Part shown: one piece after another, positions 5,569 to 15,357 of the stretch
Position numbering within the stretch: the first letter of the stretch is position 1
How the letters are laid out: each line of letters starts with the position of its first letter
Virus genome (UHGV): UHGV-1775856
Direction: 5' to 3' (one strand)
Origin: a virus
Length of the DNA: 15,357 nt
Notes under the pieces: model-generated
What the model saw: only the letters and a program-made list of their open reading frames with translations
Told to the model about the DNA's origin: nothing
The model's database searches: none
Program-made: the position numbers and the translations under genes

Positions 5569-7275
5569 TTGAGTAACTTACGCGAATACCAGAATCGTAT
5601 TGCAGATATCGCAAAACGCTCTAAAGCTGTGCTTGGCTGGGCAAGCACTGCGCAGTTCGGTACTGATAACCAATTCATTAAAGATGATGCCGCGCGTGCC
5701 GCATCTATCCTTGAAGCTGCACGTAAAGACCCGGTTTTTGCGGGTATCTCTGATAATGCCACCGCTCAAATCGCTACAGCGTGGGCAAGTGCACTGGCTG
5801 ACTACGCCGCAGCACATAAATCTATGCCGCGTCCGGAAATTCTGGCCTCCTGCCACCAGACGCTGGAAAACTGCCTGATTGAGTCCACCCGCAATAGCAT
5901 GGATGCCACTAATAAAGCGATGCTGGAATCCGTCGCAGCAGAGATGATGAGCGTTTCTGACGGTGTTATGCGTCTGCCTTTATTCCTCGCGATGATCCTG
6001 CCTGTTCAGTTGGGGGCAGCTACCGCTGATGCGTGTACCTTCATTCCGGTTACGCGTGACCAGTCCGACATCTATGAAGTCTTTAACGTGGCAGGTTCCT
6101 CTTTTGGTTCTTATGCTGCTGGTGATGTTCTGGACATGCAATCCGTCGGTGTGTACAGCCAGTTACGCCGCCGCTATGTGCTGGTGGCAAGCTCCGATGG
6201 CACCAGCAAAACCGCAACCTTCAAGATGGAAGACTTCGAAGGCCAGAATGTACCAATCCGAAAAGGTCGCACTAATATCTACGTTAACCGTATTAAGTCT
6301 GTTGTTGATAACGGTTCCGGCAGCCTACTTCACTCGTTTACTAATGCTGCTGGTGAGCAAATCACTGTTACCTGCTCTCTGAACTACAACATTGGTCAGA
6401 TTGCCCTGTCGTTCTCCAAAGCGCCGGATAAAGGCACTGAGATCGCAATTGAGACGGAAATCAATATTGAAGCCGCTCCTGAGCTGATCCCGCTGATCAA
6501 CCACGAAATGAAGAAATACACCCTGTTCCCAAGCCAGTTCGTTATCGCGGCTGAGCACACGGTACAGGCGGCGTATGAAGCACAGCGTGAATTTGGTCTG
6601 GACCTGGGTTCCCTACAGTTCCGCACCCTGAAGGAATACCTGTCTCATGAACAGGATATGCTGCGTCTTCGCATCATGATCTGGCGTACTCTTGCGACCG
6701 ACACCTTTGACATCGCTCTGCCGGTTAACCAGTCCTTTGATGTATGGGCAACCATCATTCGTGGCAAATTCCAGACTGTATATCGCGACATTATTGAGCG
6801 CGTTAAATCTTCTGGTGCGATGGGGATGTTTGCTGGTGCTGATGCAGCATCTTTCTTCAAACAGTTGCCGAAGGATTTCTTCCAGCCAGCCGAAGACTAT
6901 ATCCAGACTCCGTATGTTCACTACATCGGTACCCTGTTCGGTAACGTGAAAGTGTACGAAGTACCTGCTGGTATTTGTAAGAACTTAACGACAGAGAACA
7001 TTCAGTTCAGCTCGATGGATGTGCTGTGCTACGTCCGTGATGAAAATCCGGGTAAAGCAGGCTTCGTGACTGGTGATGCTGTCCCGGCTATCCCGTTCCA
7101 GCATCCGACCACTCCGGCGCTGGTCAACCGTACCACACTGTGGGGTTCGGCTATCAACGATATGCACCCACGCAACGGCGCTGATTACTTCACTCGTGTA
7201 ACGCTGACAATGGCCAAAAAAGGCGGGCTTAACTTCATTAGCGGCGACACGATTGATGCCGGTGACTCTGAGTAA
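5569..7275 (+). CDS. large virion structural protein, possibly the major head protein (P1 gene 23 position); start assigned to TTG at 5569
   Basis: Long ORF (track 5548-7275) with no in-frame ATG near the 5' end; TTG at 5569 sits 6 nt after AAGGAAG. It is first in an operon with a sheath-like gene and is followed by a GC hairpin. The head assignment rests on position only. Confidence 0.7.
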   Translation: MSNLREYQNRIADIAKRSKAVLGWASTAQFGTDNQFIKDDAARAASILEAARKDPVFAGISDNATAQIATAWASALADYAAAHKSMPRPEILASCHQTLENCLIESTRNSMDATNKAMLESVAAEMMSVSDGVMRLPLFLAMILPVQLGAATADACTFIPVTRDQSDIYEVFNVAGSSFGSYAAGDVLDMQSVGVYSQLRRRYVLVASSDGTSKTATFKMEDFEGQNVPIRKGRTNIYVNRIKSVVDNGSGSLLHSFTNAAGEQITVTCSLNYNIGQIALSFSKAPDKGTEIAIETEINIEAAPELIPLINHEMKKYTLFPSQFVIAAEHTVQAAYEAQREFGLDLGSLQFRTLKEYLSHEQDMLRLRIMIWRTLATDTFDIALPVNQSFDVWATIIRGKFQTVYRDIIERVKSSGAMGMFAGADAASFFKQLPKDFFQPAEDYIQTPYVHYIGTLFGNVKVYEVPAGICKNLTTENIQFSSMDVLCYVRDENPGKAGFVTGDAVPAIPFQHPTTPALVNRTTLWGSAINDMHPRNGADYFTRVTLTMAKKGGLNFISGDTIDAGDSE

Positions 7276-11008: not shown

Positions 11009-11059
11009 CAATTATTGAGGTAGATGTTTGTGCCTGTACTGTTAAAGGGGGACTCTAAA

Positions 11060-11656
11060 ATGGCTGTGATTCCAATGTCGTACTCCCCGGGTACTGTCGC
11101 TCGTCGATTTTCGATCCTGGACGGAGTTACCATCCAGGGTGTGCTTTACCAGGTTATATGGGATTCCAAAACCCCATTTGCAGCTGTAATAGAGGCTGCG
11201 CCTTCTATTATCGATGGTGATATGCGCCATAAGGTTGTCGCTACTCTTGAACTTCAACGTCGCCCGCAGCTTGAAGGCGTACTGGTAAGGAAGTTCTGGG
11301 AGGATAGCGATGTTGCCCAGATTGAAGGTATCGTGGTTGATGGAACCGTCCGGGATGTCGGTTTAGCTACTTTTGTTTACGAAACCGTAGCCTCAAAAGC
11401 TGGTGTTGTTTTGCTCAGTGATAATGAGCAATACGAAGGTGGAAAAGCTCTTTGGCAACACATCGCCCGTCGCTCTTCCGAGCTAAAAGTGTTTATCCTT
11501 GACACCGATGCCGCTCAGTATTACCCGTTTGACGGCGAACGTGTTTGCTATGACGGGGTAAGTATTCCTGAATCCGAGATATGGAGTGAACACCCAGATC
11601 GAAGTAAGCATGGGGTTGTTCTGGTCGCTGAATCCATAATTGGAAATGCGGCATAG
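11060..11656 (+). CDS. hypothetical protein, about 200 aa, function unknown; likely C1-controlled
   Basis: ORF track 11024-11656. ATG at 11060 has AAGGGGG about 9 nt upstream; the ATG at 11024 has GAGGT only 3 nt upstream. It has its own promoter region after the operon terminator. Confidence 0.65.
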   Translation: MAVIPMSYSPGTVARRFSILDGVTIQGVLYQVIWDSKTPFAAVIEAAPSIIDGDMRHKVVATLELQRRPQLEGVLVRKFWEDSDVAQIEGIVVDGTVRDVGLATFVYETVASKAGVVLLSDNEQYEGGKALWQHIARRSSELKVFILDTDAAQYYPFDGERVCYDGVSIPESEIWSEHPDRSKHGVVLVAESIIGNAA

Positions 11657-11838
11657 CAGTAAAAAATTCCTTGCTCCTTAAAAGGGGAGAGGGTTAATCT
11701 ACGTATGCTAAGCATAGAGATGGCCTCAGATTAATGTTAAGCGTCTTGCAGGACGCGTAATGTTATCTGGGGCGTTCTTCTATCTGCTTTTCGGGTAATG
11801 CCTGAAGCAGATAGCCTCAAGCACCCGTAACGATTGTA

Positions 11839-12980: not shown

Positions 12981-13009
12981 TACAATGCTGGTGGTTCTTA
13001 CTACGTCTG

Positions 13010-13810
13010 TTAGCGCGTTGCCGCGACAGGTACCAGCACACCAGCATCAAGCAATCGCTTCATCAGCCACTGCTGACCTTTGCCGGTTATACGAGTCGTG
13101 AAAGAAATCCTGCTTCCATTGCTTGTATCGATCACGGTTTCTTTAAGGGTGAAATACCCACGGGATATGTATTCTTGTTTGGGGACGTTCCTGCGTTCAC
13201 CGGTTGCGATCAGAATTCCGTTATCACGCAACCAGGTGAAGAGATAGTTTTGGCCCAGGCCGAGCACTTTGGCATAGTTGCCGATTAGAACCCCGCTGGC
13301 GGTAGCAACGCGTTCGGCGAATTCGACTTTAGGTGCATCCATCAGCATTTTTTGCTCCAGCCGTTGCTTTTGCTCTGCCAGGTCAGCAGCCAAACGGAGA
13401 GCTTCTGGGAGGCTCTTCGGAATAGCAGGTTGTAATCTTCCGGCTCGATAGTCGATAAATGTCTGGTTTACCTTCAGCCGAAACGCGGGAGAAATCCAGC
13501 CTGCGTACTCCACTGCGAGCAATTCATGGGCAAAAGTGCCGCCGCCACGGCCTTCGAACGAAACTATGCAATTCTGCATAGTTTCTTTTTCAAGCTCTTC
13601 GATGAGCTGTTTGGCTGACAGCGTTCTTAGCCATTGAGCTGGCGCTTTATGGGCACCGAGTCCGCTCGCTCTGTGTAGAGCATTAAGGTTGTAACGGCCA
13701 GCGCGGTCGGTCGTAATTTCAACACCACAAATAACGGGCAGAGTGGTTGAAGGATCGACATTTTGATGAAGGTTTGATATATTCATATCCGCATTGAATG
13801 TTTGTTGCAT
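13010..13810 (-). CDS. kilA: KilA (KilA-N domain at the N-terminus, KilAC domain at the C-terminus)
   Basis: 266 aa, the P1 KilA length as I recall it; GGAG Shine-Dalgarno 6 nt before the ATG at 13810; the C-terminal ~130 aa are clearly paralogous to the C-terminus of the upstream ant gene. Confidence 0.85.
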   Translation of the reverse strand: MQQTFNADMNISNLHQNVDPSTTLPVICGVEITTDRAGRYNLNALHRASGLGAHKAPAQWLRTLSAKQLIEELEKETMQNCIVSFEGRGGGTFAHELLAVEYAGWISPAFRLKVNQTFIDYRAGRLQPAIPKSLPEALRLAADLAEQKQRLEQKMLMDAPKVEFAERVATASGVLIGNYAKVLGLGQNYLFTWLRDNGILIATGERRNVPKQEYISRGYFTLKETVIDTSNGSRISFTTRITGKGQQWLMKRLLDAGVLVPVAATR

Positions 13811-13879
13811 TTTTTCTCCAAATTTGCATCAACCTTCAATCACCAGCTCGAAATGGTGATTCTTTGCACTTAGAAAACG

Positions 13880-13896
13880 AAATTTATTAGAGCAAA
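13880..13896 (-). promoter_or_regulatory. C1 repressor operator (Op53-like) in the kilA-repL promoter region
   Basis: The minus strand reads TTTGCTCTAATAAATTT, a 16 of 17 match to the P1 C1 operator consensus ATTGCTCTAATAAATTT, about 70 bp upstream of the kilA start. Three GATC sites lie just upstream at 13909-13931. Confidence 0.65.
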
Positions 13897-13941
13897 TTTT
13901 TCTGATTCGATCCAGATCGGGTTGGACGATCTGCTCAGAAA

Positions 13942-13968
13942 CCTGCCAGTTTGCTGGCAGGTTTTTTT
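13942..13968 (+). terminator. hairpin plus T-run in the ant-kilA intergenic region; strong intrinsic terminator in plus-strand orientation, weaker on the minus strand
   Basis: CCTGCCAG (13942-13949), loop TTTG, CTGGCAGG, then TTTTTTT (13962-13968). On the minus strand, which is the direction of ant transcription, only UUUCU follows the stem. Confidence 0.5.
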
Positions 13969-13974
13969 CTTTTG

Positions 13975-15018
13975 TTAACCTATTGCTACTGGTTTTAACA
14001 AACCAGCATCAAGTAGCTTGCGAGTTAACCACTGCTGGCCTTTACCCGTTAATTGGGGCGTCAGCCGTATCTGGTAGCCATTTTCATCATCCAGCACCAC
14101 TTCTTTCACCGTGAAATACCCGGCGTTGATGTACTGTTGGCGCGGTACGTTTTTGCGCGCACCAAAAGCCATGAGAATGCCGTTCTGGCGCAACCATGAG
14201 AAAAGGGCGTTTTGCTTAAGTCCAACGACCTTTGCAAAGTTCCCGATCAGGATTCCATTGGCCACTGATACCCGGTCGGCAAAATCGACTTTAGGGGCTG
14301 CGGCCACCAGCTGTTGTTCCAGCTGCATTTTCTGTTCTGCCAACTCGGCAGCCAGGCGTAGAGCTTCTGGTAATGTTTGGGGGATCGATGGGGTAGGGGA
14401 GTTTGCCTGCTGCAATTCTTCCAGTTTGTCGATCAGCGAACGGCGGACGGCTTTTGATTCGCGTGCGGCGACTCGCAGGGCTTGTTTGTAGGTCATGGTT
14501 ATGACAACCATAGGCGTACCGCCACCTGGCGGCACGGTTGCACTTTTTGTGTAACCGTCCTCACCTTCTAATTCGTCGAGTATTTTTTCGATGAATTTGT
14601 TGTTCCGAACCTCTGGTTCCCCACATAACTTACGCGCTTCATTGACCATCTTTAACAGTGTCAGGCTGTCGATTGTGTCTCCGGTGTTGGGGATGATATT
14701 CACGGCTGGTGCTGGCGTAGCTGACGTAACAGGTGCTGTTTTTTCAACATTCAAATTATTACCGGTCATTCTATGTGCCTCCTTTCTCATTTCTGCTGCC
14801 ACTGTTGCGTAACGTAGACGTCCTTGTTCAATCAAATAATCCCTGATCTCGGCTATCAGTAGCTTGTTGATCACAGCCTTATCTGTTCGGGTATAAAAAC
14901 GTCTGGTTATCATGAAATAGTTGGCAATTGCGCCGGGGATCTCCCGTGTCGGCATACAGGCAGTATGCAGGGCGATCGCTTCGGCTATGTCATTACGGGT
15001 GACGAGAGGTTTTTTCAT
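13975..15018 (-). CDS. ant: antirepressor Ant (AntA/Rha-like middle region plus C-terminal KilAC domain)
   Basis: 347 aa; the start ATG overlaps the icd stop in an ATGA arrangement; GGGGGG Shine-Dalgarno; the C-terminal KilAC domain is paralogous to kilA; internal in-frame Met codons could give a shorter Ant2-like product. Confidence 0.8.
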   Translation of the reverse strand: MKKPLVTRNDIAEAIALHTACMPTREIPGAIANYFMITRRFYTRTDKAVINKLLIAEIRDYLIEQGRLRYATVAAEMRKEAHRMTGNNLNVEKTAPVTSATPAPAVNIIPNTGDTIDSLTLLKMVNEARKLCGEPEVRNNKFIEKILDELEGEDGYTKSATVPPGGGTPMVVITMTYKQALRVAARESKAVRRSLIDKLEELQQANSPTPSIPQTLPEALRLAAELAEQKMQLEQQLVAAAPKVDFADRVSVANGILIGNFAKVVGLKQNALFSWLRQNGILMAFGARKNVPRQQYINAGYFTVKEVVLDDENGYQIRLTPQLTGKGQQWLTRKLLDAGLLKPVAIG

Positions 15019-15236
15019 AAACCCCCCTGAACGTCGGCAGAGAAGGGGAGGCTCCAGTAACTAAGTGGGTTGCGGGAGTTAGTTGAAAAACGGGCAGTAA
15101 AAATGCAGGGGCCGTCAGGCAATTGAGAGCGTGCTTCGTCTTCTGTTGCTGCGATAACGAAGTGATAGTGGTGTTTTTTACAGGAATAGAAACGCCAGAT
15201 GAATTCTTGGCGTGCGCAAGGATTGGCATTAACCAT
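15015..15236 (-). CDS. icd: Icd-like small protein (immI operon), translationally coupled to ant
   Basis: 73-aa ORF with GAGG Shine-Dalgarno; its TGA stop overlaps the ant ATG; the position and 73-aa size match P1 icd as I recall it. The upstream c4 RNA region is cut off by adapter sequence. Confidence 0.55.
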   Translation of the reverse strand: MVNANPCARQEFIWRFYSCKKHHYHFVIAATEDEARSQLPDGPCIFTARFSTNSRNPLSYWSLPFSADVQGGL

Positions 15237-15287
15237 AGTTACGGCCTCACAATCAGGTTTAACAACCTGCTACCCGCTGTCAAACAG

Positions 15288-15357
15288 CTGTCTCTTATAC
15301 ACATCTCCGAGCCCACGAGACCGGAGCCTATCTCGTATGCCGTCTTCTGCTTGAAAA
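15288..15357 (+). other. Illumina Nextera adapter read-through (sequencing artefact, not biological)
   Basis: CTGTCTCTTATACACATCT (Tn5 mosaic end, 15288-15306), then CCGAGCCCACGAGAC, an 8-nt index-like CGGAGCCT (15322-15329), then ATCTCGTATGCCGTCTTCTGCTTG (P7), then AAAA. Confidence 0.93.

Follow-up and report, generated by a model that had tools for sequence, protein, structure and literature searches.

The window analysed in this study, a stretch of 15,357 nucleotides given as one strand of the virus genome UHGV-1775856, stops at its 3' end a short way upstream of icd, and this end raises the question of whether its last 70 bases are phage DNA at all and, if they are not, where the real sequence stops and what lies lost behind it. 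Gene content and alignments identified the window as a segment of a P1-like phage-plasmid, carrying repA, a GIY-YIG/T5orf172 gene, parA, parB, several structural or unknown genes, a sok-like RNA, repL, kilA, ant1/2 and icd. BLAST matched the window to 936 plasmid and 84 phage records, including a collinear alignment at approximately 98% with hundreds of P1-like plasmids of E. coli and Salmonella, and also with P1, P7, RCS47 and SJ46. P1 itself gave 77% coverage and 97.6% identity, and the DNA identity of P1-group phages to the window was approximately 95-98%. Over positions 13000-15287, the closest relative was the locus L013 (GCA_023273495.1), with 99.91% identity. An origin from a P1-derived cloning vector (PAC) was also considered and was ruled out, as 15 kb of the window is collinear at approximately 98% with natural P1-like plasmids.

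The final 70 bases are almost certainly an artefact of the sequencing library, the contig ending on a Nextera adapter. By direct reading, the window runs as ...gctgtcaaacag up to the junction and continues as CTGTCTCTTATACACATCT CCGAGCCCACGAGAC CGGAGCCT ATCTCGTATGCCGTCTTCTGCTTG AAAA, and each part of this string could be assigned. The first part, CTGTCTCTTATACACATCT at 15288-15306 (+), is the Tn5 mosaic end in reverse-complement orientation, exact in 19 of 19 positions, and this 19-mer occurs nowhere else in the window even when up to 3 mismatches are allowed, with 0 occurrences expected from shuffling. It is followed at 15307-15321 (+) by an exact match to CCGAGCCCACGAGAC, the complement of the Nextera Read-2 / index-1 primer site (transposase adapter B), then by the 8-nt i7 index CGGAGCCT, extracted from the window at 15322-15329 (+), and by an exact match to ATCTCGTATGCCGTCTTCTGCTTG, the complement of the P7 flow-cell oligo, at 15330-15353 (+). 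The index is N720, which is tabulated with the primer bases AGGCTCCG and the index CGGAGCCT (PMC7589761, Appendix B table). An exact comparison with adapter sequence had been set beforehand as the check on the initial annotation; a search of the whole window with the pattern CTGTCTCTTATACACATCTCCGAGCCCACGAGAC-N8-ATCTCGTATGCCGTCTTCTGCTTG returned a single match of 66 nt, at 15288-15353 (+), with 0 mismatches. These 66 nt agree fully with the published "Nextera adapter sequence for post-run trimming, Read 1" (PMC5827657). Thus, the reading of the terminal 70 bp as mosaic end, read-2 adapter, index and P7 sequence holds exactly for 66 of the 70 bases, but not for the last four, AAAA at 15354-15357 (+), which are part of no oligo.

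The four terminal bases are probably base calls past the end of the template. Calls of this kind appear as a run of A on a 4-channel instrument and as G with 2-channel chemistry, and the AAAA is presumably owed to 4-channel base calling. Compared with an i7-side read-through of a Nextera or Nextera XT library, all 58 fixed positions are identical, the 8 variable bases form a catalogued index, and both the Read-1 orientation and the position at the sequence end agree, with only the trailing AAAA lying outside the oligo. Other Nextera, TruSeq, P5 or P7 fragments were found nowhere else in the window, the 5' end included. There is nothing novel in the adapter itself, and it is not a biological feature.

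The point at which the real sequence stops was located by the ends of the BLAST alignments and by multiple alignments, which place the last real base at G15287 and the first adapter base at 15288. The listed P1-like alignments that reach the 3' part of the window end at 15279-15290, mostly at 15287 or 15290, and none of those listed, from plasmid or phage records, enters the adapter. Some ends fall at 15290 because of a zero-score extension, in which the mismatch at 15288 is followed by a T and a G at 15289-15290 that agree by chance. In the multiple alignments of 15 relatives (L001, L002, L003, L004 and L009-L019), all 15 read GTGGCAGGACGTGAC... after the equivalent of G15287, and the window reads CTGTCTCTTATAC... 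at this point. The 9 bases preceding the junction are GTCAAACAG; set by eye against the weak Tn5 target consensus, they were uninformative and carry no weight here. The initial annotation had stated that the assembly ends on untrimmed adapter; this is supported by the exact adapter identity together with the stop of homology at 15287-15290, from which we infer the failure of trimming. As to the opposite end, positions 1-69 begin within a gene, and the homologous CDS in pEND_Eco12053-2 (L004 1415-1837) spans -353 to 69 in window coordinates, so that the 5' end may be either a second contig break or merely the edge of the window.

The artefact most likely arose as follows. A Nextera library, made by Tn5 tagmentation, would have been prepared from DNA containing a P1-like phage-plasmid, with one Tn5 cut falling right after base 15287 and the N720 index and P7 being added by PCR. 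With an insert too short to fill the read, Read 1 on the + strand would have run on through the mosaic end, the primer site, the index, P7 and the AAAA; the mates, on the artefact reading, would start at 15287, proceed leftward and run into the i5 adapter ...CTGTCTCTTATACACATCTGACGCTGCCGACGA. Such reads would have been left untrimmed or only partly trimmed, and the assembler would have kept the adapter path as a dead-end tip, by which the contig came to end on adapter. Short tips of low coverage are normally clipped by assemblers. The survival of this one may be due to a gap in coverage over c4, for example, or to strain-level branching in that neighbourhood.

The same adapter was found in many other public records. 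Seventy-one GenBank phage records matched the 70-mer, 35 of the 71 across 80% or more of it; many of these matches lay at the ends of the records, and adapter-only matches occurred in unrelated phages of Listeria, Bacillus, Pseudomonas, Acinetobacter and others. Moreover, the same adapter, again carrying N720, closes four unrelated IMG/VR contigs (L005-L008) of the dataset 3300045988. In GTDB representative genomes, a search for the adapter bearing this index gave 0 matches. The window therefore shares its adapter with adapter-contaminated public assemblies, but its own plasmid-adapter junction, searched as a 40-mer, was found neither in IMG/VR (0 matches) nor in JGI metagenome contigs (0 matches). 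The adapter was also observed internally in some records, for example at 76690-76759 of MK327946.1 (168828 in length), within an annotated baseplate hub CDS, and at 107516-107585 of MT584805.1, within a DNA polymerase CDS, and it was further present at 6637-6706 of MH973725.1. Copies lying inside annotated CDSs suggest adapter-mediated misassemblies in those records.

The rival explanation that survives best, though it is very unlikely, is that the adapter is internal to a chimera: the window would have been taken from a longer contig that fused two unrelated pieces through shared adapter k-mers, and would happen to stop just past the adapter. The internal copies in MK327946.1 and MT584805.1 give precedents for such an arrangement, and the junction 40-mer is without a match in the two contig collections. 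On the other hand, the window ends 4 nt past P7 in a run of A, as do three of the four IMG/VR contigs, where the runs are A4, A5 and A8, and a length of 15357, not being round, speaks for a natural contig end. Even if the chimera were real, everything beyond 15287 would remain an artefact. Other contigs of the same assembly may share the contamination, internal chimeras included.

On the real side of the junction, the immI operon is present as far as the leader of icd. The last complete real gene is icd, encoding a cell-division inhibitor of 73 aa at 15015-15236 (-), as given by the ORF list and by the Icd annotation in matching records; its product is identical to P1 Icd in 69 of 73 residues (95%). 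The icd ORF overlaps by 4 nt with that of ant1 at 13975-15018 (-), which encodes the antirepressor of 347 aa and contains ant2 in frame at 13975-14769, as assigned by Pfam and by the P1 annotation. Ant1 carries an ANT/KilAC domain (Pfam, E = 1.2e-30), and an exact-protein look-up found the window's exact Ant1 protein in 5310 blocks of the contig collection. Previous studies have described that C1 represses transcription of the immI operon and that icd and ant are kept from being expressed by the C4 antisense RNA (PMC8198154, PMC6906374). The two targets of the C4 RNA were transferred from the annotated P1 genome (NC_005856) through a gap-free alignment, in which the window position equals that of locus L001 plus 11399. 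They are a2, in the leader of the icd-ant mRNA at 15277-15283 (-), and b2, in the icd leader at 15247-15254 (-). Compared with the P1/P7 immI arrangement (Op51-P51a/b-a1 b1-c4-a2 b2-icd-ant1/2), the window keeps ant1/2, icd, b2 and a2 in the order and spacing of P1, but it stops after a2, without c4, a1/b1, both promoters and Op51. If the terminal bases are an artefact, as preferred here, the immI operon (c4-icd-ant1/2) has been cut between a2 and c4. In a separate observation, some plasmids of approximately 98% identity (for example NZ_CP134391.1 and NZ_OY754380.1) cease to align at 15206, in the 5' part of icd, and a breakpoint within icd is compatible with exchange of the immI control region as a module.

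What has been lost can be read from the annotation of P1. The annotated 77-nt P1 c4 RNA would fall at 15287-15363 of the window, and G15287 is the 3'-terminal nucleotide of c4, the other 76 of its 77 nt being missing from the window. Farther out, and likewise missing from the window, the P1 annotation places the a1/b1 sites approximately 143-164 nt beyond the junction, P51b at 196-224 nt, P51a at 236-264 nt and the C1 operator Op51 at 263-279 nt; P51a/P51b and Op51 were conserved in every relative aligned. Furthermore, in the four relatives given an Rfam search (L001-L004: P1, MH422554, pCFSAN004176P_03 and pEND_Eco12053-2), C4 (RF01695) and c4-a1b1 (RF03163) were found just past the junction point in all four, with C4 at 68-71 bits (gathering score 45). 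Neither family was found in the window at the Rfam gathering score. A permissive Rfam search (E<=10) of positions 15000-15357, the last 358 nt, found no C4 and returned only two matches at chance level, one of them to c4-a1b1 (12.6 bits, E 1.3, where the gathering score is 46.7) and on the wrong strand. The window has no match to c4 because the contig is truncated at the junction. The claim that c4, the promoters and the C1 operator are missing is borne out by the P1 annotation, which places all of them past the junction, and by the Rfam search, which finds no C4. The broader claim that the sequence upstream of icd is missing is right from c4 outward but does not apply to b2 and a2, both of which are retained.

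The elements c4, a1/b1, P51a/P51b and Op51 are thus absent from the record, and nothing points to their absence from the real plasmid. It is highly improbable that the plasmid itself lacks c4 and the promoters, as an immI deletion or a virulent-type variant would, for this reading has no direct support, c4 being merely absent from the record, and three observations oppose it: tagmentation joins adapters at any Tn5 cut and marks no natural ends, c4 is directly adjacent in 15 of 15 relatives with this icd-ant region, and a2 and b2 are intact and match the c4 of seven relatives whose sequence is identical to the tail of the window. It would accordingly be wrong to take the lack of c4, the promoters and the operator for an immI-defective or virulent variant, or the contig end for a phage genome terminus.

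The Tn5 mosaic end, a functional recognition end for the transposase, was engineered by combining the natural outside end with the inside end. A real Tn5-derived transposon inserted between icd and c4, for example by transposon mutagenesis, would account for the 19-nt end, which is one that the transposase can recognise, but it hardly deserves credence, since the mosaic end is followed by the Illumina primer site, the index and P7 with no IS50 or cargo, the engineered hybrid is not a natural IS50 end, and neither a second end nor a 9-bp target duplication was seen. A chance match was ruled out, since the 66-nt Nextera pattern was matched by 0 of 200 dinucleotide-preserving shuffles of the window, and the analytic expectation for the 58 specified bases on both window strands is approximately 4e-31.

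With the adapter set aside as a library artefact, the retained C4 targets bear on the specificity of the immI operon to which they belong. The heteroimmunity of P1 and P7 has been attributed to sequence differences within immI (PMC8198154, PMC6906374). In the window, a2 reads ctgtcaa on the + strand, which is the P1 type, P7 having ctgctaa; b2 reads tcacaatc, which is the P7 type (L019), P1 having tcactaac. The window therefore combines a P1-type a2 with a P7-type b2, unlike either P1 or P7. In the seven relatives with the identical tail, c4 carries a' of the P1 type and b' of the P7 type, and a1 of the P1 type and b1 of the P7 type are also present, matching a2 and b2 of the window. A further type was found in L002, L009, L014, L016 and L018, with P7-type a-sites and a b-site cgtaagt paired to acttacg, and in every type seen among the aligned relatives all three a/b copies co-vary. 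Taking a2 and b2 as the basis within the window, the real plasmid probably has a coherent hybrid immI, with P1-type a and P7-type b in all three copies, and would be heteroimmune to both P1 and P7 at the level of immI.

The initial annotation had also held that the true neighbourhood cannot be inferred from this contig, which is correct for the contig taken alone and for everything past Op51, but not for the interval from c4 to Op51 once relatives are consulted. Ten contigs whose Ant1 is identical to that of the window were retrieved and compared together with the GenBank relatives. The last 46 nt of the window's real sequence were identical in seven loci (L003, L010, L011, L012, L013, L015 and L017), in all of which the sequence runs on into c4 as GTGGCAGGACGTGACAGGGTTGACAGACTGGCGATTGTGAAACCAGCAGGCC..., the continuation predicted for the contig. 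These seven loci are identical through c4 and then have at most 2 substitutions each as far as Op51, approximately 280 nt in all. Directly past Op51 (AAATTTATTAGAGCA), the seven loci fall into two sequence types, with three or more gene cassettes among them: one of the DUF5384 lipoprotein type, as in P7; one of YfjT and a 215-aa PTP-like protein, carried by L013; and one of SH3, YfjT and a 163-aa protein. The gene of P1 at the cassette position past Op51 is sim. Relatives with 99.6% identity over 13000-15287 carry cassettes other than the YfjT/PTP-like one of L013. Judged from these related sequences, the next approximately 280 nt, from c4 to Op51, would be predictable with good confidence, and the cassette beyond would not be predictable.

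It was further observed that P1-like plasmids with identical icd-ant-c4 diverge right past Op51 into at least 3-4 alternatives (sim; DUF5384; YfjT with the PTP-like protein; SH3 with YfjT), the divergence being seen from approximately 3080 onward in L003, from approximately 17330 onward in L004 and upstream of 2783 in L009-L018. Op51 looks like a sharp recombination boundary.

The junction also explains a small open reading frame at the end of the window. The initial annotation had warned that any ORF or boundary call past 15287 is meaningless, and indeed the ORF at 15199-15354 (+), a spurious one of 51 aa, runs straight into the adapter. It translates to MNSWRAQGLALTIVTASQSGLTTCYPLSNSCLLYTSPSPRDRSLSRMPSSA and a stop, ending in ...NSCLLYTSPSPRDRSLSRMPSSA before the stop; written as ...SGLTTCYPLSNS CLLYTSPSPRDRSLSRMPSSA and a stop, its last approximately 22 codons and the stop codon are adapter. 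The 51-aa product had no Pfam match, and the exact-protein look-up found no called gene for it. The consequence for the record is one of data hygiene only, namely that the terminal 70 bases ought to be trimmed off and the ORF at 15199-15354 discarded.

A minor observation concerns the sok-like RNA. An Rfam match of 82.5 bits placed sok (hok/sok antitoxin RNA with its leader) at 11652-11826 (-). An ORF of 53 aa at 11493-11654 (-), beginning MPHFQLWIQ..., starts at the terminal AUG of the sok model; its product is not Hok-like, and Pfam gave no match to it. The sok region may be a remnant of a hok/sok system without the toxin. A convergent ORF of 210 aa at 11024-11656 (+) abuts the point at which sok and the 53-aa ORF meet, and in some relatives a true HOK_GEF gene of 51 aa occupies this place.
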